Of a DNA stretch of 50,980 nt, positions 28,601 through 36,174 are shown one piece after another. How positions within the stretch are numbered: position 1 is the stretch's first letter; each line of letters begins with the position of its first letter. The DNA comes from Planctomycetota bacterium (GTDB lineage: Bacteria > Planctomycetota > Phycisphaerae > WQYP01). The stretch covers positions 1 to 50,980 of the forward strand of contig JAJZGD010000003.1 of NCBI GenBank assembly GCA_021804985.1, given 5' to 3'. The notes under the pieces are model-generated. The model saw only the letters and a program-made list of their open reading frames with translations, did not search any database and had not been told where the DNA came from. Made by a program: the position numbers and the translations under genes.

Positions 28601-28861
28601 GGTTATCACGGCTTCACCGAGGAAGATGAGGCGTTCACCCAACAGGTCGCCCAATCATTCGCGGATGGCGCAATCCCAAAAATCACCGCGAAGAAAATTG
28701 CCCAATTACTGAAAAAAGAATCCGACCCGCTCAAAGTACTCAGCATTCTGCGCCGCGAAATTCCTACCTCGCTGCTTTCACCCACCCAATCCGCCCAGGC
28801 CGCCCGCGCCGCAAGCCCGCGTGAGGTGATTCTCTCTTCCATGCTGCTGGAGGCACCATGA
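25634..28861 (+). CDS. PLD-family (HKD) nuclease domain fused to an SNF2-family helicase
   Basis: The N-terminus has a single HKD motif, HAKVYIM...[10 protein letters not shown]. The SNF2 core shows GLGKT (motif I), DESHRFRN (II) and VSATPLNN (III). The C-lobe reads [14 protein letters not shown]...[23 protein letters not shown]. The start is taken at the ATG at 25634 ([12 protein letters not shown]); the ORF opens at 25586. Confidence 0.9.
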   Translation: [1075 protein letters not shown]

Positions 28862-28864
28862 ATC
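28814..28864 (+). repeat. 51-bp direct repeat, left copy (helicase 3' end / ATGA junction)
   Basis: AGCCCGCGTGAGGTGATTCTCTCTTCCATGCTGC[T]GGAGGCACCATGAATC. The same 51-mer with one mismatch is at 30266-30316, an offset of 1452 bp. Confidence 0.9.
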
Positions 28865-29049
28865 ACGATCAGTCCGGGCCAATCGCAAAGAAAACCCTCA
28901 CGCGAAAATTCGACGCGGGCCGATTTCTGGAATTTGTCGGCAAGCGGCTCAACACGGTGGGGCAAGCCAAGGCATACGCTCGCAATAGCCAATACGTCAA
29001 AAGCATACTTAGTGTTGCCGATAAAGGTCGTGGAAGGGGGGCGGCATGA
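28858..29049 (+). pseudogene. 63-codon remnant of a diverged methyltransferase N-terminus
   Basis: MNHDQSGPIAKKTLTRKFDAGRFLEFVGKRLN...NSQYVKSIL aligns with the MTase N-terminus MNRDQARNLVRETLTQKFDKGRFTALVGNLLN...NNQYVKDAF. Homology stops near 29010. There are ATGA overlaps at both ends, with the helicase stop and with the yhcG-like start. Confidence 0.65.
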
Positions 29050-30209
29050 TCAGAAGGCGTGACTCGCTGGCCGGGCCTAAGCCCAAAATCGCCGGCTACG
29101 AGGCGTTTCTGGCCGGCGTTACCGGCCTGCTCGAATCAGCCCGGCGCGGTGCCGCCCGGGCTGTTAATTCCCTCATCACCGCAACTTACTGGGAAATCGG
29201 CCGCCGCATGGTGCAATTGGAACAAGGTGGAGAATCGCGGGCCGATTATGGCGAATACCTCATGGACCGCTTATCCGCCGATCTTTCTGTGCGCTACGGT
29301 CGAGGCTTCTCCCGCCGGGCGGTCTATCAGATGCGGGCGTTCTATCTGGCATATCCGGCAATTGTGCAGACACCCTCTGCACAATTCGTCGCAACTGCCC
29401 AACTGCCTCCGGAGGTCAATCCGCTGATTGTGCAATCACCGATTGCACAATTGCCATCGCCGCGGTTCCCGCTGACCTGGACCCACTATGTGCGGATGCT
29501 GGCGGTCAAAAATGAATCCGCTCGAAACTTCTATGAAACCGAGGCCCTCCGATGCGGATGGTCCATCCGCCAGCTGGATCGCCAGATTGATTCGCTCTAT
29601 TACGAACGCACGGCCTTGTCAAAAAATAAGGCCGCCATGCTTGCCAAAGGCCGAAAAAAAAGTCCCGGCGACGCCGTTACCCCCGAAGAAGAAATCAAAG
29701 ACCCCTTCGTTCTGGAATTTCTACAACTCAAAGATGAATACTCCGAAACCCAATTGGAAGAGGCGCTCATCCGCCATTTGGAATCGTTCCTTCTGGAACC
29801 TGGCGATGATTTCGCCTTCCTTGGCCGGCAAAAGCGATTGCGGATCGACGACCAATGGTTCCGCGTCGATCTGTTATTTTTCCACCGCCGGCTTAAATTC
29901 CTGATCGTCATCGATCTCAAGACGGGAAAATTTACTCATGCCGATGCCGGCCAAATGCACCTGTATCTCAATTATGCCTCTGAACATTGGGTCCGGCCGG
30001 GAGAAAATCCGCCTGTGGGCCTGATTCTCTGCGCTCAGAAAGACGCGGCCATTGTTCATTATGCGCTGGAGAATTTGCCCAACAAAGTTCTTGCGGCGGA
30101 GTATAAAATGAAATTGCCCGATGAAGCCACCCTCGCCAATGAAATGGATCGCACGCGCAGGGCGCTGGAAATCAGATCAGTGCCCAGGCGCGGGGGCACG
30201 AAGAAATGA
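29046..30209 (+). CDS. YhcG-like PD-(D/E)xK nuclease domain protein (DUF1016 family)
   Basis: YWEIGRRMV, WTHYVRML, FYETEALRCGWSIRQLDRQI, DPFVLEFL and FLGRQKRLRIDDQWFRVDLLFFHRRLKFLIVIDLKTGKFTHADAGQMHLYLNY form the characteristic DUF1016 N-domain plus restriction-endonuclease-like core (D...DLK). Confidence 0.85.
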   Translation: MIRRRDSLAGPKPKIAGYEAFLAGVTGLLESARRGAARAVNSLITATYWEIGRRMVQLEQGGESRADYGEYLMDRLSADLSVRYGRGFSRRAVYQMRAFYLAYPAIVQTPSAQFVATAQLPPEVNPLIVQSPIAQLPSPRFPLTWTHYVRMLAVKNESARNFYETEALRCGWSIRQLDRQIDSLYYERTALSKNKAAMLAKGRKKSPGDAVTPEEEIKDPFVLEFLQLKDEYSETQLEEALIRHLESFLLEPGDDFAFLGRQKRLRIDDQWFRVDLLFFHRRLKFLIVIDLKTGKFTHADAGQMHLYLNYASEHWVRPGENPPVGLILCAQKDAAIVHYALENLPNKVLAAEYKMKLPDEATLANEMDRTRRALEIRSVPRRGGTKK

Positions 30210-30250
30210 GTACACCCCAAAGCATTATGCTCTATGCTGCAATCATGCGT

Positions 30251-30313
30251 GCCGCCCGTACAACCAGCCCGCGTGAGGTGATTCTCTCTTCCATGCTGCC
30301 GGAGGCACCATGA
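30251..30313 (+). pseudogene. 20-codon remnant of a helicase C-terminus
   Basis: [20 protein letters not shown] compares with the real helicase end [20 protein letters not shown]. Its TGA overlaps the MTase ATG exactly as at the left junction. Confidence 0.6.
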
Positions 30314-30316
30314 ATC
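30266..30316 (+). repeat. 51-bp direct repeat, right copy
   Basis: See 28814-28864. Confidence 0.9.
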
Positions 30317-33300
30317 GCGATCAGGCCCGCAACCTCGTCAGGGAAACCCTTACGCAGAAATTCGACAAGGGCAGGTTCACCGCCTTGGTGGGAAACCTGC
30401 TCAACCGCATCGATACGCAAAAAACGTTTTCCTGCAACAACCAATACGTCAAGGACGCCTTCAAGCCGCACGTGAACCGCTACGAGCGCATCGCAAAATA
30501 CACTGCGCCCGACCAACGCAAAATCGACATTCTGGTGGTGCACCTCACCGAAAACGCCAATCTCGGGCGCACCCGCACCGCATTGCGTAATTTCGTGGCG
30601 GATTATCTAAAAAACCGGGATCGCAAAGATGCGGCCCTGGTGGCATTTGTTTCTCCATCCGACTCGGCCTGGCGCTTCTCCTACGTCAAAATGGAATACG
30701 CCACCGTTGAAACATCATCGGGCGACGTTGCCACAGAAGCCCGCCTCACGCCCGCCCGCAGATTTTCCTACCTCGTTGGCCCCGGAGAAAGTTGCCATAC
30801 GGCGCAGACTCGCTTCGTATCGCTTCTGCAGGACACCACCAACAACCCAACGCTGACGGATATAGAAGCAGCCTTCAGCGTTGAGGCCGTCACCAGGGAA
30901 TTCTTCGCGCGCTACAAGGAACTTTTCCTTGCGGTAAAAGATGAACTCGACAGAATCGCCGCGGCCGAGAAGGCCATCCAGGGCGAATTCAGCCAACGCA
31001 AACTGAGCACCGCCGATTTTGCCAAAAAGCTCCTGGGCCAGATCGTGTTCCTATATTTCCTTCAAAAAAAAGGCTGGCTCGGCGTGGCAAAAGACGGTGC
31101 CTGGGGCAACGGCCCGCATAATTTTCTCCGTAAACTCGCCAACCGCGAATTCGTTAAATATGGCAATCTTTTCAACGATATCCTCGAACCACTCTTTTAC
31201 GATACCCTCGCCACCGACCGTGGCCATGAGGCGCTGTGTAAAAAGTTTAACTGCCGCATTCCCTTCCTCAACGGCGGCCTGTTCGAACCGCTGGGTGGCT
31301 ACGATTGGCGTAACACCGAAATCCTGCTGCCCAATGAATTGTTCACGAATACTCAACCGGTGGAAGAAGGCATCATCGGCACCGGTATTCTGGATGTATT
31401 CGACCGCTACAACTTCACCGTTAATGAAGCCGAGCCGCTGGAAAAGGAAGTCGCGATCGACCCCGAAATGCTGGGCAAGGTTTTTGAAAACCTGCTGGAA
31501 GTAAAGGAACGCAAATCCAAAGGTTCATTCTATACCCCGCGTGAAATTGTGCATTACATGTGCCAGGAAAGCCTGATTAACTATCTCGACACAGCAATCA
31601 ACGGCAATGGTAATGGTGACACAGGCATTCCTGCCTGTAAATTATCCCAGTGTGACACAGGCATTCCTGTCTGTGCCGGCAGTGATGCTGGTGCCCCAGG
31701 CATTCCTGTCTGTGCCCCACCAAAGGTACAGTGTGACACAGACATTCCTGTCTGTGCCGGCAGTGATGCTGGTGCCCCAGGCATTCCTGTCTGTGCCCCA
31801 CCAAAGGTACAGTGTGACACAGACATTCCTGTCTGTGCTGACGTTGATGTTGGCGTCCCAGGCATTCCTGCCTGTGCCTCGTCAAAAGCACAAGGTGACA
31901 CAGGCATTCCTGCCTGTGCCGGCAGTGGGAAAATTCACAAAACCACCCGCAATCTTCCCCATTGGACCAGAGAAGGCTCAGTCTATTGGACCACCTTCCG
32001 ACTCGCCGATTCCCTACCACAGGAAAAGCTCGATGCCTGGCGGGCGGAGCGGGAAATCTGGCTCAACCAACACCCTAAACCCTGGAGTGATGAGGATTGC
32101 AAAGAATACGACGCGATTTTCGACGAACGCCTGCAATCCTGGCTTGACGCCGGCTACGGTTCATGCGCCCTTATGCGGCCTGATGTCCGGCAAGTTGTGC
32201 AAGAGTGCCTGCTTCGCTTCGATGGCCAGCGGCTGCGGCTGCACGCCGCGGTCATCATGCCCAATCATATCCATTTGCTTCTCGAACCCCTTGTCGGCAA
32301 CGAATTGTCTGAACTCCTGAAGGGTATTAAAGGTGCAAGCGCCCGCAAAGCCAACCAAGCCTTGGGTAATACCGGGACCGCCTTTTGGATGGACGAATCT
32401 TACGACCACATTGTTCGCAGTGAGCGGCAGCGGCAACACCTTGTCCGCTACATGATGGAAAATCCCATCAAAGCAAATCTGCCAGCCGACCAATTTTGGC
32501 TTTACCAGTGTGACGGTGACACAGGCATTCCTGTCTGTGCCCCACCACAAACACAGACAAGAATGTCTGTGCCACGCTGTGATATCGAAACCCTTGTTCA
32601 CTCCGGCGACCAGGCGGCCCATTACGAAACCGCCCGCGTTGGAGGCACTACAAGTTACAGGGCTGAACTGCCGCCAGGCATCGAAAACAACGCGCGATCT
32701 CTGGATGAAGCGCTTGCCTCCATCACCGTTTGCGACCCCGCCATCGGTTCCGGCGCCTTTCCCGTCGGGATGATGCACGAAATTGTCCGTGCCCGCTCCG
32801 CCCTGACACCCTATTTCAACGATGTGGCCGAGCGCACCGCCTACCATTTCAAACGCCACGCCATTCAAAACTGCCTCTACGGCGTGGACATCGACCCCGG
32901 CGCGGTGGAGATCGCCAAGTTGCGGCTCTGGCTTTCGCTGGTGGTGGATGAAGAGGATGTCCAGCAGATCAAGCCGCTGCCGAACCTGGATTACAAAGTG
33001 GTGGTGGGCAATTCGCTGCTGGGCGTGGAAAAGACGCTGTTCAACCAAGAATTGTTCACCCGTCTGGAGGAGATCAAGCCAAAATATTTCGATGAAACAA
33101 ACAGCGATAAAAAGCACGAATACAGGAAGGAGATCAACCAACTTATCCAAGATCTCACCGACGGCCAAACGGCCTTCGATTTTGAGATTTATTTCTCGGA
33201 AGTGTTTCACCGTAACGGCGGGTTTGACGTGGTGATCGGCAACCCACCGTATTTGTTCGCAAGAAACAGTAAGGAAAAGGGGATTACCGCAGCGGACAAA

Positions 33301-34431
33301 AAAATCTACAACGGCACCTACATGCTCGCCGAATACCAGATAAACCTTTACCCGCTCTTCATAGAAAGAGGCACCGGGATACTAAGGGAAAGCGGCAGTT
33401 TCGCCTTCATCACGCCCAACAACTGGCTCACGATCAACACAAATGGCCTGCTGAGAAACTTTGTCCTGAACCGGTCGGAAATCACAATCGTCAATTTCTA
33501 CGCCCGCATGTTCGCCGGCGCGGATGTCGACAACTCAATAATCATCTATAAAAAATCCGCGGGGAAACGACGCATAAAACTCTTCGAGTACAGGAGCGGC
33601 CTGGAGCTCGTCAAGGAGGCTGATTGCGACTTCTTCCTGCAGCAACGCGACTCGATCATCAATATCGACGCACAGAAGGGTGGCCACGTTGCCGCATTAA
33701 TGCAAAAAATTGAATCCCGCGCCGACAGGCTCAGGGACGTTGCGGATGCCAGGGTCGGGCTTAAGGCATACCAGACCGGAAAGGGAAGACCACCACAGGA
33801 GAAGAAGGCCAAGGACGGGCGAATTTTCCACTCGGGCGACCAAATCGACGAAACCTACATCAAATACTTGGATGGCAGGGACGTGAGCCGGTACAGGCTG
33901 GGATGGGGAGGCGAATACCTCAAGTACGGCCGTCACCTTGCGGAACCGCGCACACAATTCAGGCTATTTTCCTCGAAGCGTATCCTCGTGCGCCAGATTC
34001 CGGCAAATCCGCCGTATTGTATCCACGCCTGCATCGCCGAGGAAACACTCCTCAATGACCTCAACTCAATGAACATCATCAATTCCCGCGAACCGGCAGA
34101 GCTTGTTCTGGGCATTTTGAACGCGCGGCTCACCTCGTTCTGGTTCGTCCACAGATTCGGCAAAATGCAGCGGCGAACGTTCCCGCAATTCAAAGTGAAC
34201 GAGCTCGCAGAATTTCCACTCCCCCGGGGGAGGGAGCGGCGGCAGGCCGAAATAATCCGCCTGGTTGGCGAGGCCATGTCGGCCAGGCGCAGCGACCCAG
34301 GGGCGGACATCTGTGCCATTGACCGGGAGATCGACCGAATCGTTTATAGCCTTTACGGCCTGACTCCCGAGGAGATCGCCATCGTCGAAGGGACAACCGA
34401 GGCGTCTGGCCGCGAGAAAAAAAAGAGCTAG
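30310..34431 (+). CDS. Eco57I-type (gamma-class) N6-adenine DNA methyltransferase with a TaqI_C-like target-recognition domain, carrying an in-frame REP/RAYT insertion
   Basis: Motif X GSFYTPREIVHYM (FYTP at 31528-31539), motif I CDPAIGSGAFP (from 32734), YGVDIDPGAVEIAKLRLWLSL, and motif IV GNPPY (33241-33252). The C-terminal TRD ends in the typical SLYGLTPEEIAIVE. FYTP and motif I are separated by ~398 aa, of which ~322 aa is the REP/RAYT segment. It is a single uninterrupted 1373-codon ORF. Confidence 0.9.
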   Translation: MNRDQARNLVRETLTQKFDKGRFTALVGNLLNRIDTQKTFSCNNQYVKDAFKPHVNRYERIAKYTAPDQRKIDILVVHLTENANLGRTRTALRNFVADYLKNRDRKDAALVAFVSPSDSAWRFSYVKMEYATVETSSGDVATEARLTPARRFSYLVGPGESCHTAQTRFVSLLQDTTNNPTLTDIEAAFSVEAVTREFFARYKELFLAVKDELDRIAAAEKAIQGEFSQRKLSTADFAKKLLGQIVFLYFLQKKGWLGVAKDGAWGNGPHNFLRKLANREFVKYGNLFNDILEPLFYDTLATDRGHEALCKKFNCRIPFLNGGLFEPLGGYDWRNTEILLPNELFTNTQPVEEGIIGTGILDVFDRYNFTVNEAEPLEKEVAIDPEMLGKVFENLLEVKERKSKGSFYTPREIVHYMCQESLINYLDTAINGNGNGDTGIPACKLSQCDTGIPVCAGSDAGAPGIPVCAPPKVQCDTDIPVCAGSDAGAPGIPVCAPPKVQCDTDIPVCADVDVGVPGIPACASSKAQGDTGIPACAGSGKIHKTTRNLPHWTREGSVYWTTFRLADSLPQEKLDAWRAEREIWLNQHPKPWSDEDCKEYDAIFDERLQSWLDAGYGSCALMRPDVRQVVQECLLRFDGQRLRLHAAVIMPNHIHLLLEPLVGNELSELLKGIKGASARKANQALGNTGTAFWMDESYDHIVRSERQRQHLVRYMMENPIKANLPADQFWLYQCDGDTGIPVCAPPQTQTRMSVPRCDIETLVHSGDQAAHYETARVGGTTSYRAELPPGIENNARSLDEALASITVCDPAIGSGAFPVGMMHEIVRARSALTPYFNDVAERTAYHFKRHAIQNCLYGVDIDPGAVEIAKLRLWLSLVVDEEDVQQIKPLPNLDYKVVVGNSLLGVEKTLFNQELFTRLEEIKPKYFDETNSDKKHEYRKEINQLIQDLTDGQTAFDFEIYFSEVFHRNGGFDVVIGNPPYLFARNSKEKGITAADKKIYNGTYMLAEYQINLYPLFIERGTGILRESGSFAFITPNNWLTINTNGLLRNFVLNRSEITIVNFYARMFAGADVDNSIIIYKKSAGKRRIKLFEYRSGLELVKEADCDFFLQQRDSIINIDAQKGGHVAALMQKIESRADRLRDVADARVGLKAYQTGKGRPPQEKKAKDGRIFHSGDQIDETYIKYLDGRDVSRYRLGWGGEYLKYGRHLAEPRTQFRLFSSKRILVRQIPANPPYCIHACIAEETLLNDLNSMNIINSREPAELVLGILNARLTSFWFVHRFGKMQRRTFPQFKVNELAEFPLPRGRERRQAEIIRLVGEAMSARRSDPGADICAIDREIDRIVYSLYGLTPEEIAIVEGTTEASGREKKKS
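31621..31918 (+). repeat. array of 8 REP hairpins (consensus CACAGGCA-TTCC-TGCCTGTG) including an 81-bp tandem repeat
   Basis: Hairpins at 31621-38, 31656-75, 31697-712, 31737-56, 31778-93, 31818-37, 31859-74 and 31899-918. The stem variants CACAGACA/TGTCTGTG keep pairing. Units starting at 31650, 31731 and 31812 have an exact 81-bp (27-codon) period. Confidence 0.85.
32529..32580 (+). repeat. REP doublet downstream of the RAYT core (one direct, one inverted)
   Basis: 32529-48 is CACAGGCA-TTCC-TGTCTGTG. 32561-80 is CACAGACA-AGAA-TGTCTGTG, whose loop is the reverse-orientation version (complement TTCT). Confidence 0.8.
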
Positions 34432-34441
34432 GAATTGACCA

Positions 34442-34654
34442 ATGAAAATCAGCCGTGTGCAGATTAAAAACTTCCGTAACTTCGCCAGCCTTGATGTGGC
34501 CCTTGGCGAACACGCCGTTATCGTCGGCGAAAACAAGGTCGGAAAATCGAATTTCCTATTCGCACTGCGATTGATTCTCGACCCGTCGCTGCCAGATACG
34601 GCAAGAAAACTTCGTGACGAAGACTTCCGGCCTTGGGAAAGGGGCGACCGGTGA
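34442..34654 (+). pseudogene. N-terminal stub (70 codons) of an OLD-family / AAA_15 ATPase (GajA/OLD-like)
   Basis: MKISRVQIKNFRNFASLDVALGEHAVIVGENKVGKSNFLFALRLILDPSL is the canonical OLD/AAA_15 start with Walker A GxNxxGKS. The frame stops at codon 70, and no Walker B or TOPRIM region follows in any frame. Confidence 0.7.
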
Positions 34655-34707
34655 GCAGGTACACACGGCGTCTAACGCGCCCCGGCGCGCCACGCTCCAT
34701 CCTTACC

Positions 34708-36174
34708 ATGACCGCAGCGCAGGCACGCACGTTTTTCCTAAAGACAGAGAGCTACTGCAATTTTGACCTACCAGGGTACATCCAGTTCGGTTCCCTGTTG
34801 GAGGCCGTCGCCGAGCAGATGCGCGGTAAGGAGCTTCGCGCTATGTCCCTGAACCCTCGCGAGCACGAGGGCGTGAATTACACGGTGCAGTCGAACAAGG
34901 ACGGCCGATACGCGTGGCGGCCGCTACAGCTGATTCACCCCGCCCTCTACGTCTCGCTGGTGGACAAGATCACCACCCCAGAAAATTGGGGGGCGATAAC
35001 ACGCCGATTCATTGATTTCCAAAAATCATGCAAACTCAGATGCCTGGGCATCCCGCTGCAGTCCCGGGCGGGGGGCAAGGACAAGGCCGCCCTGATCGGC
35101 AGCTGGTGGCAAGAAATAGAGCAGAGATCGATCGAGCTCGCCATCGAATACGGCCATCTATTTCACGCAGACATCAAGGGTTGCTACGCCGCGATCTACA
35201 CGCATTCGATCGCATGGGCGCTACACGGCAAGAACGAGGCAAAAAGCGCCCGGCGCAATAAAGAACTCATCGGGAACGCCATCGATGCGCAAATCCAAGG
35301 CATGCGTCAGGGCCAGACCAACGGAATCCCCCAGGGGTCAGTATTGATGGATTTCATCGCTGAAATGGTTCTCGGCCACGCCGACCTCGATCTAACCACC
35401 CGCATTGGGGCCGCCGGAATTAGTGACTACCACATCCTGCGCTACCGCGACGACTACCGGGTGTTTACAAACAACCCCCGGGATGGCGAACAAATCCTTA
35501 AGCTGCTGACGGAAGTTCTCATCGGCCTGGGCATGCAGCTGAACACGGCCAAGACAGGGGGATCGTCGCAGGTCGTGAAAAGCTCCGTAAAGGCCGACAA
35601 GCGGTCATGGATCCGGGGGAAACAGTGGGACCGGAACCTTCAAAAGCACCTGCTCATAATCCACGCGCACGCTGAGGATTTCCCAAACTCCGGCAGCGTT
35701 GTTGTCGCCCTTGGGCGCTTCCACAAGAGAGTGTATGAGGAAAAGGCTTTCCAAAACGTCCGTGCCCTGATCAGCATCGTTGTTGACATCGCGTACGGCA
35801 GTCCGAGGGCATTTCCGGTGTGCGCGGCAATCATCAGCAAGCTACTAACCGCGATCAAGGAGAAGGCAGAACGGGAAGAGATCGTGGGGAATGCCCACAC
35901 CAAGATGTCACAGATGCCCAACACCGGCCACATTGAGTTGTGGCTCCAGCGAATCAGCTACGCGAGCGGTTTGGGCGTCGCCTACGGTGAACCGATATGC
36001 AAGCTCGTTGAGGGCGAGGCCACTGGCCTTTGGAACAGCGACTGGATCAAGGACGAGAACCTGAAGGCGGCACTCAACCCGTCCGGGATTGTTAGCAGGC
36101 CAAGGCTTCGCGCGGCCAAGCCTGTCATCGCACCGGAGGAGATAGCGGTCTTCCCGGAGGAACGGTACGAGTGA
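34708..36174 (+). CDS. stand-alone reverse transcriptase, Abi/UG (defence-associated) type with a helical C-terminal domain
   Basis: RT motifs: 1/2 KDGRYAWRPLQLIHPALYV; A FHADIKGCYAAIYTHSI; B NGIPQGSVLMDFIAEMVL; C ILRYRDDYRVF (YxDD); D/E GMQLNTAKT. About 200 aa of predicted helical C-terminus follow. The start is taken at the ATG at 34708 (MTAAQARTFF); the track ORF opens at a TTG at 34633. Confidence 0.85.
   Translation: MTAAQARTFFLKTESYCNFDLPGYIQFGSLLEAVAEQMRGKELRAMSLNPREHEGVNYTVQSNKDGRYAWRPLQLIHPALYVSLVDKITTPENWGAITRRFIDFQKSCKLRCLGIPLQSRAGGKDKAALIGSWWQEIEQRSIELAIEYGHLFHADIKGCYAAIYTHSIAWALHGKNEAKSARRNKELIGNAIDAQIQGMRQGQTNGIPQGSVLMDFIAEMVLGHADLDLTTRIGAAGISDYHILRYRDDYRVFTNNPRDGEQILKLLTEVLIGLGMQLNTAKTGGSSQVVKSSVKADKRSWIRGKQWDRNLQKHLLIIHAHAEDFPNSGSVVVALGRFHKRVYEEKAFQNVRALISIVVDIAYGSPRAFPVCAAIISKLLTAIKEKAEREEIVGNAHTKMSQMPNTGHIELWLQRISYASGLGVAYGEPICKLVEGEATGLWNSDWIKDENLKAALNPSGIVSRPRLRAAKPVIAPEEIAVFPEERYE

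Follow-up and report, generated by a model that had tools for sequence, protein, structure and literature searches.

A REP-RAYT cassette embedded in frame in a DNA methylase gene, and related insertions in other host genes

We describe a REP-associated tyrosine transposase (RAYT) that lies, together with its repetitive extragenic palindrome (REP) hairpins, inside a DNA methylase gene on contig JAJZGD010000003.1 of a Planctomycetota bacterium (assembly GCA_021804985.1, positions 1 to 50,980); "the window" below means this whole stretch of 50,980 nt. The host open reading frame (ORF; 30310..34431, + strand) encodes 1373 aa and is stop-free through eight forward REP hairpins, the RAYT core and a forward-plus-reverse REP pair, all of which sit between methylase motif X and motif I. 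An earlier, sequence-only reading of the window had reported a complete RAYT with REP hairpins in frame with both methylase halves, and this proved correct. RAYT cassettes that live and move inside host genes as translated internal domains are a widespread and apparently undescribed habit. The window's insert is probably an intragenic "REPtron", i.e., a selfish cassette (forward REPs, the RAYT, then one forward and one reverse REP) that occupies a surface loop of an N6-adenine methylase of the defence type, in a Phycisphaerae-like chromosome.

The host is recognisable on both sides of the insert. Pfam finds Eco57I (136 bits), TaqI_C (64 bits) and N6_Mtase in the 1373-aa protein, with Y1_Tnp at aa 640-714, and the motif order X-I-IV together with a TaqI-like target-recognition domain assigns it to the gamma class, with the corresponding activity predicted. 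The top PADLOC model, REase_MTase_IIG PDLC03596 (801 bits), covers aa 1-433 and picks up again after ~aa 800. As regards type IIG membership, aa 1-400 yielded no nuclease domain, and the PLD nuclease belongs to the partner protein (described below). Membership of BREX as a PglX is ruled out by a score of 62.5 against the cut-off of 500 for NCBIfam BREX_1_MTaseX and by the lack of brx neighbour genes. Three further public contigs (L001-3) carry an identical gene minus one 81-nt REP unit, with six rather than eight upstream REPs, and the allele structure is the same in all four assemblies.

Several lines of evidence identify the embedded domain as a RAYT. Pfam Y1_Tnp scores 29.4 bits, over its 23-bit cut-off, and NCBIfam REP_Tyr_transpos scores 59.4 bits, under its 80-bit cut-off. 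In an AlphaFold model of window aa 420-800, the predicted local distance difference test (pLDDT) score is 87-98 over aa 540-737 and 30-40 over the disordered linkers encoded by the REPs, and the predicted structure is thus a compact TnpA-REP-like fold tethered by those linkers. A Foldseek search with the RAYT model gave 4ER8 (E. coli TnpA-REP, E 2e-7) as the top PDB match, followed by the TnpA proteins of ISDra2 and IS608. Among the RAYT hallmarks named in the sequence-only reading, the HUH motif (H653-I654-H655) stands, but the catalytic tyrosine is not in ESYDHIVR: alignment to Y132 of ISDra2 places it at Y714, in VRYMMENP. Y714 should also correspond to Y115 of E. coli TnpA-REP. Both the HUH and the catalytic tyrosine are invariant in nine embedded RAYTs (A1, Tyr = Y174) and in 69 embedded plus free RAYTs (A3, Tyr = Y295). 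By analogy with TnpA-REP, the embedded RAYT would bind and cleave single-stranded DNA (ssDNA) at REPs.

The RAYT does not form a separate gene: it has no start codon of its own, and no stop codon occurs until 34431. There is no in-frame ATG, GTG or TTG in 31585-32172, the first being an ATG at aa 622, inside the RAYT, so an internal start giving a free RAYT is ruled out. The isoleucine of "IHKT" is ruled out as a start too, as it belongs to the RAYT N-terminus in free relatives. Because the cassette holds neither a start nor a stop codon, the transposase can be translated only as an internal domain of the methylase, as had been proposed from the sequence alone. Free RAYTs (P0124, P0135, P0180, P0217 and others) and the loci L016-L020 have an ATG upstream of RRNLPHW within the loop of a reverse REP (CAGGAATGTCTG, read QTGMSV), and a start codon inside a hairpin bound by the enzyme suggests autoregulation. 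The RAYT clade of the window is without this start because its upstream REPs are all forward.

The window's REP is a 20-nt hairpin (CACAGRCA-TTCC-TGYCTGTG) with an 8-bp stem and a TTCC loop, observed ten times in the 51-kb window against zero copies expected from shuffles. The RAYT is flanked by cognate REPs on both sides, with eight forward copies upstream (31620-31918) and two downstream (forward at 32520, reverse at 32552), so all ten that had been claimed were located. No copy was found in the rest of the window outside the ORF 30310-34431. Spacings in the upstream array are 36, 39 or 42 nt, every one a multiple of 3. The downstream pair folds at -18.9 kcal/mol (z -3.4), and the right junction (GTGCCACG) is common to the window and other alleles.

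Comparison of 362 REP copies, whose 5' tags are GTGA, GTGG or GTAG, suggests what is being conserved. Stem pair 6 is A-T in 232 copies, G-C in 111 and mismatched in 16, i.e., changes are compensatory, and the reading frame through the REPs differs between loci and lineages. For these two reasons, the REPs appear to be selected as DNA/RNA hairpins, not as peptides. REPs of the same orientation are spaced by multiples of 3 in 50/50 embedded pairs versus 1/11 intergenic pairs. Embedded loci have only three REP copies outside ORFs in ~210 kb of flanks. Around free RAYTs, there are 20 copies in 337 kb, with the same REP family on both sides of the RAYT plus dispersed copies. The hairpins are of the GTAG type, but extragenic genome-wide dispersal was not found for them in the loci and flanks examined.

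The arrangement is not peculiar to the window. Among the top 120 methylase homologs of the window protein, 18 contain a RAYT, at 40-98% identity to the window protein, so the frame conservation in homologs that the sequence-only reading had set as its own test was found many times. The distance from FYTP to motif I is 312-401 aa in the fusions versus 80 aa in insert-free proteins, and the insert is absent from most members of the methylase family. A single-sequence protein search with the RAYT missed known fusions (a limit of its word index), and we instead used DNA-level RAYT-profile scans, which are blind to ORF calls, and an exhaustive search of cluster representatives. The DNA scans placed RAYTs inside methylase genes at 18/52 loci in GTDB species genomes and at 22/80 loci in metagenomes. 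In the GTDB scan, the 15 closest RAYTs (63-86% identity) are all within long methylase ORFs, and three more distant ones likewise; the carriers are Planctomycetota, Ca. Brocadia sapporoensis, Smithella, Acidobacteria, Cloacimonadota, Verrucomicrobiota, Lentisphaeria and Omnitrophota, with the Ca. Brocadia sapporoensis contig coming from RefSeq. The same scan found methylase fragments beside a stand-alone RAYT at 0/34 loci. Methylase-embedded RAYTs are sense-oriented in 40/40 cases over both scans, and the frame is unbroken, as far as the contig reaches, at ~35 of ~40 embedded loci. Two caveats attached to the original observation, a "1 in 9 chance" of frame agreement and a "recent neutral insertion", can be dismissed for the class.

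Embedded RAYTs are polyphyletic, at least three REP/RAYT types are involved, and the nearest relative of the RAYTs at L019 and L046 is a stand-alone RAYT. Most fusions use the window's own site ("site 1", right after INYLDTAxN), P0074, P0080 and P0088 use a second loop ("site 2", after ALTPYF), P0004 combines a site-1 RAYT with REPs alone at site 2, and P0062 has only a forward-plus-reverse REP pair, at site 1. The loci L016-L020, L027 and L046 belong to a second host family (family B, a PglX/MmeI-like methylase), where the RAYT occupies the equivalent loop after motif X. In an AlphaFold model of the insert-free homolog P0014 (pLDDT 81), which has a core like CamA/M.TaqI and an overall fold like BrxX/PglX and MmeI, both sites are short coils between helices: site 1 is the eight-residue coil 431-438 after helix 411-430, and site 2 is the coil 515-522. 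That the insertion lies in a variable linker between motifs X and I, as first read from the sequence, agrees with this model.

RAYT-less homologs carry other repeat-like in-frame peptides (e.g., VIASEAKQS...IASSQ) in the same two loops, at site 1 in P0015, P0073, P0029, P0087 and P0094 and at site 2 in P0010, P0053, P0067, P0070 and P0083, and many have an optional ~30-aa segment at site 1. Both loops appear to be general hotspots for insertion of palindromic elements. A separate case is P0121 (310 aa), the closest RAYT among the matches listed by the single-sequence search (68% identity), which ends in GLTPEEIAIVEEKG, the conserved C-terminus of the window's methylase family. This suggests either that a RAYT cassette sits close to the 3' end of a methylase gene or that P0121 derives from a deletion.

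RAYTs are also embedded in proteins that are not methylases. The exhaustive profile search covered 1.84 billion cluster representatives and gave 13,724 relatives, of which the best 150 (50%-identity clusters) were examined; the profile was built from methylase-embedded RAYTs, so it favours methylase hosts. At least 150 aa of other protein flank the RAYT on both sides in 33 of these 150, and on at least one side in 62. According to Pfam, the RAYT is mid-protein in PriA, RecG, a DinG-like helicase, XseA, a Mur ligase, HypF, a CCA-adding enzyme, a radical SAM enzyme, shikimate dehydrogenase, a CARF-adenosine deaminase, MmeI, HsdS and HsdR, as well as in more Eco57I-type methylases. Across these hosts, it is flanked by different REP-type peptides. 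For example, L060 (5001-7898) is a chromosomal priA gene on a 173-kb contig, found on four contigs, where the RAYT lies between the 3'-DNA-binding domain and the helicase core; it is bracketed by inverted classical GTAG REPs (CGTAGACGCGACGCCCTCGTCGCG), and host domains are in frame on both sides.

Selection was assessed with the ratio of nonsynonymous to synonymous divergence (dN/dS). Compared with other fusions at site 1 that belong to its own clade, the RAYT has a dN/dS of 0.17-0.23, and the host has 0.06-0.13 in the N-domain and 0.08-0.23 in the region around motif I. On these ratios, the RAYT, including its HUH and catalytic tyrosine, is under purifying selection. The methylase probably still works, because motifs I and IV are intact and dN/dS in the host domains is 0.06-0.23.

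Synonymous divergence (dS) indicates that the cassette and its host gene have different ages. Among the window, L004, L006, L007 and L008, dS is 0.14-0.54 in the RAYT versus 0.63-1.6 in the adjoining host segments, i.e., 3-8 times lower in the RAYT, and for L006/L007 it is 0.14 versus 1.09 and 1.13. Third-position identity is 0.84-0.96 in the cassette versus 0.4-0.6 outside, with sharp edges, and the fraction of identical codons at conserved residues is 0.76-0.91 in the RAYT versus 0.51-0.61 in the host (Fisher p 1e-6 to 5e-20). Codon bias is ruled out as the cause, since G+C content at third codon positions is alike in RAYT and host. Pairwise distances and trees also conflict, with L006-L007 the closest pair for the RAYT and L004-L007 for the host. 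In deeper pairs (L009, L010 and L014), dS is similar in and outside the cassette. The dS contrast, sharp edges, RAYT/host incongruence and old host alleles together indicate that the cassette entered already-diverged alleles; on this synonymous-site evidence, it is younger than the host alleles and has spread horizontally between them. A single ancient fusion co-diverging with the methylase is ruled out by polyphyly, the two sites, the two host families and the dS contrast. Between the window and L006, though not between L006 and L007, third-position identity is also raised (0.72-0.76) over ~80 codons upstream of the cassette (aa 351-430). Recombinational transfer may have left a co-conversion tract there, or codon choice may be constrained because the segment is so highly conserved.

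How might such a cassette move and persist? IS200/IS605 elements move by "peel and paste", and TnpA-REP binds and cleaves REP hairpins in ssDNA. From known Y1 HUH chemistry, the embedded RAYT would recognise its own flanking REP hairpins and mediate excision and insertion; alternatively, it would nick DNA and so trigger recombination into an empty allele. In-frame residence would supply the cassette with the expression signals of the host gene. Only precise loss would be tolerated, since the methylase guards against its own helicase-nuclease partner and inactivating it would do harm. Cassettes would thus survive in permissive loops, where only in-frame, stop-free copies keep the host gene working. 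No benefit to the methylase is needed or indicated, and the selection visible in these sequences preserves the transposase and an uninterrupted host ORF rather than any joint function.

Several points weigh against this selfish-cassette explanation. We infer translation of the fusion, and the activity of either moiety, from sequence features. Cassettes could have passed between alleles by ordinary homologous recombination following gene transfer, without any action of the RAYT, and no RAYT is known to have been shown directly to transpose. Of the long hosts, ~40% are methylases or other restriction-modification genes, which could reflect a functional affinity rather than tolerance, though the profile is biased towards methylase hosts. 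A few methylase loci are in decay, broken by a distant stop or frameshift in L011, L062, L067 and L069 and by an out-of-frame right junction in L096. Both leucyl-tRNA synthetase (LeuRS) hosts are broken as well: L061 (3640-3799) has an in-frame TAA right after KMSKS, and P0290 loses the LeuRS frame after the RAYT. These two may be decaying second copies, sequencing errors or recoding, and they rule out the idea that essential hosts always stay intact. The phylogeny is a neighbour-joining tree without support values, and REP copy numbers come from short-read assemblies and may be wrong.

A wider interpretation is that one RAYT-REP lineage has taken up an intein-like lifestyle minus the splicing, i.e., residing in frame in permissive loops of host proteins (above all restriction-modification methylases, which are horizontally mobile, but PriA, RecG, XseA, Mur ligase and others too), being expressed only as an internal domain and "homing" between diverged alleles of one gene. 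We regard the chances of this as about even. Inteins proper are ruled out, as the Pfam scan found no Hint or intein family, the insert consists solely of REP linker and Y1_Tnp, and there is no splice-junction chemistry; protein splicing is therefore not expected.

Conservation of the frame across phyla, retention of the catalytic residues and a dN/dS of ~0.2 would also fit a domesticated chimera, in which a RAYT was recruited by a methylase/helicase-nuclease defence system (e.g., as an ssDNA-hairpin sensor or nicking module) and the frame was kept for joint function. The over-representation of defence and restriction-modification hosts among long proteins (Eco57I-type, PglX-like, MmeI, HsdS, HsdR and CARF-adenosine deaminase) points the same way, as does the fact that the window allows no free RAYT. 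We nevertheless consider such a chimera unlikely. The same RAYT group occurs within PriA, RecG, XseA, Mur ligase, HypF and shikimate dehydrogenase, where that function would be senseless, and the insert is missing from most family members. Two loops are used and the insertions are polyphyletic, the host alleles are older than the cassette, and the REP hairpins are kept by compensatory changes while varying in copy number, neither of which a protein-level function needs. Together with the use of two methylase families, these same facts (polyphyly, two loops, variable-copy and functional-looking hairpins, a young cassette and unrelated housekeeping hosts) leave unsupported the suggestion, made from the window alone, of a specific, selected architecture combining a methylase with an HUH nuclease.

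It is improbable that the cassette is an excision switch, i.e., that the gene is effectively interrupted and a fraction of the population regains the methylase when the RAYT excises the cassette precisely from ssDNA, which would make the cassette an on/off element for defence. Such a switch would make the frame, the absence of stops and REP spacing by 3 needless, yet these hold at ~35/40 loci and in 50/50 spacings. Y1 transposases of the IS200/IS605 family do excise precisely, the outermost REPs are inverted, and alleles lacking the RAYT come from the same ENA study as the window's relatives: L058 (P0062) is REPIN-only, with a forward-plus-reverse pair at site 1 and the same right junction as cassette alleles (GTGCCACGT), and L059 (P0084) is empty (TASPTIPR). 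However, both have diverged from cassette alleles (dS >1) as much as these have from each other, like unrelated alleles. They are therefore ruled out as recent excision products, being old, diverged alleles and not near-identical empty sites. The sequence also gives no intron or ribozyme signature and no Hint/intein domain: an Rfam search of 31400-32800 at E<=1 turned up nothing beyond chance matches to hairpins, all below threshold, which rules out an intron, ribozyme or IStron. The empty-site DNA of L059 (CCCACAATTCC) bears a loose resemblance to half a REP.

A recent neutral insertion, pseudogene or repeat-driven assembly artefact, with frame agreement by chance, is very improbable here and excluded for the class of embedded RAYTs: the REP family is open in five of six frames (by direct translation of the repeat), short-read assembly can collapse or mis-join REP arrays (eight upstream REPs in the window versus six in L001-3) and a minority of loci are broken, but the allele structure agrees in four assemblies, ~40 loci come from different assemblers (including the RefSeq Ca. 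Brocadia sapporoensis contig), orientation is sense in 40/40, RAYT dN/dS is well under 1 and the host domains on both sides are under purifying selection.

Coordinates of the cassette, its host and the partner gene are collected in Table 1. The methylase's neighbours in the window are the partner gene (a PLD-SNF2 helicase), a DUF1016 gene, an ATPase fragment and an AbiP2 reverse transcriptase. L004 has the helicase ortholog directly overlapping the methylase start, which indicates a two-gene system. In the window, a 63-aa ORF (28858-29049) is a diverged copy of the methylase 5' end, including 18 nt upstream, and overlaps the helicase stop in the same way as the true methylase start does in L004. 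A DUF1016/YhcG PD-(D/E)XK gene (29046-30209, PADLOC PDC-S02) lies between this 5' duplicate and the true start at 30310. It looks as if the helicase-methylase pair was split by a gene insertion with 5' duplication (window 28858-30309). Downstream, at 34442-36174, lies a fragment (the N-terminal 70 aa) of an AAA_15/OLD-type ATPase, and immediately after it comes a defence reverse transcriptase of the AbiP2 type (PADLOC 639 bits). The methylase system, ATPase fragment and reverse transcriptase make a small defence island amid housekeeping genes. Homologs of YidC put the source organism within Planctomycetota, close to Phycisphaerae.

Table 1. Features of the embedded cassette, its host gene and the partner gene, in window coordinates
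Feature	Position	Strand	Remarks
Partner gene: PLD (HKD) nuclease + SNF2 helicase, 1091 aa	25586..28861	+	PADLOC HKD+Snf2 family, 171 bits
Host ORF: gamma-class N6-adenine DNA methylase, Eco57I/TaqI_C type, PglX/MmeI-like	30310..34431	+	1373 aa including the cassette
Motif X FYTP, aa 407-410	31528-31539	+	
Left host flank of site 1: motif X and next helix, ending INYLDTAIN	31528..31602	+	
Upstream REP array, 8 forward hairpins	31615..31927	+	codes ~105-aa linker of GDTGIPVCA repeats, disordered (pLDDT 30-38)
RAYT (Y1 HUH) core, aa 541-733	31930..32508	+	no start or stop codon of its own
HUH motif H653-I654-H655	32266..32274	+	aligned to HUH of ISDra2 TnpA
Catalytic Tyr Y714 in VRYMMENP	32449..32451	+	aligned to ISDra2 Y132
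Downstream REP pair, REPIN-like long hairpin, right end of cassette	32515..32580	+	forward 32520-32539, reverse 32552-32571
Motif I CDPAIGSG, aa 808-815	32731..32754	+	
Site 2 loop ALTPYF...YHFKRH	32800..32859	+	unoccupied in window; RAYT or REPs there in other homologs
Motif IV NPPY, aa 978-981	33241..33252	+	

RAYTs are usually pictured as tending dispersed REP populations from intergenic sites, and there is little direct evidence that they move anything. In the present case, much of one RAYT group is embedded in host proteins and translated with them, and the pattern at synonymous sites shows recent movement between alleles. If the intein-like interpretation is true, not all RAYTs are domesticated single-copy genes, some being active mobile elements, and a DNA transposon has a new way to hide in coding sequence. 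If confirmed, embedded cassettes would offer a natural system for testing RAYT mobility, extend the known phenomenon of "REPs inside genes" to a whole autonomous element and provide a non-splicing counterpart to inteins. They would also map loops in PglX/MmeI-like methylases that tolerate inserts of at least 300 aa, which is useful for enzyme engineering, and warn annotators that "long Y1_Tnp fusion proteins" are not errors.

The closest known systems are the REPtrons of E. coli (YafM, PDB 4ER8) and of Pseudomonas RAYTs. The window's cassette shares with them a Y1 core with HUH and tyrosine, a TnpA-REP-like predicted fold, GTAG-type 5' tags (here GTGA/GTGG) on both sides and an inverted REP pair, and stand-alone relatives (at most 68% identity, from bacteria of the PVC superphylum) carry the window's REP family. 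It differs in that known RAYTs are separate intergenic genes with their own start and stop, while this one is an internal protein segment whose REPs are coding and in frame, with almost no dispersed copies nearby. The usual description of RAYTs is of domesticated, single-copy genes inherited vertically (PMC5581495); embedded cassettes, by contrast, bear signs of having moved between alleles recently.

Palindromic REPs that sit in frame in functional genes and add 20-80 aa have been described before (Di Nocera et al. 2013, PMC3733652, who also cite the Rickettsia palindromic elements, RPEs). In-frame REPs are most numerous in the verrucomicrobium Opitutus terrae, often in replication/repair genes and tRNA synthetases, and in Rickettsia (PMC3733652). 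Those intragenic repeats are short repeats only; here, a whole autonomous unit of ~320 aa with its transposase is in frame. Quentin et al. 2018 (PMC6006769), in surveying the TnpA-Y1 family, left out "unexpectedly long proteins", which they took for fusions or annotation errors. While intragenic REPs were found in the literature we searched (subscription-only papers lay outside its coverage), no description of an in-frame RAYT was.

Like inteins and homing elements, the cassette is an in-frame selfish insert with its own DNA enzyme, is expressed only via the host ORF, uses both defence and conserved housekeeping hosts and is younger than the host alleles, in a homing-like pattern. Unlike inteins, it occupies variable loops rather than conserved active-site motifs, and its enzyme is a Y1 HUH ssDNA transposase instead of a homing endonuclease. 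With IS200/IS605 elements and IStrons it shares the transposase superfamily and sub-terminal hairpins at both ends, and IStrons, too, lessen harm to the host gene. However, the cassette is without tnpB and avoids harm by translational read-through, not RNA splicing.

For the host enzyme, no solved relative is known to have a domain inserted in this loop. It resembles PglX/BrxX, MmeI-type IIL/IIG enzymes and CamA/M.TaqI in its X-I-IV motif order, its Eco57I and TaqI_C domains and its overall BrxX/MmeI-like fold. From the PglX of BREX systems it differs in scoring far under the cut-offs (62 versus 500), in its lack of BREX neighbours and in having a PLD-SNF2 helicase as its partner.

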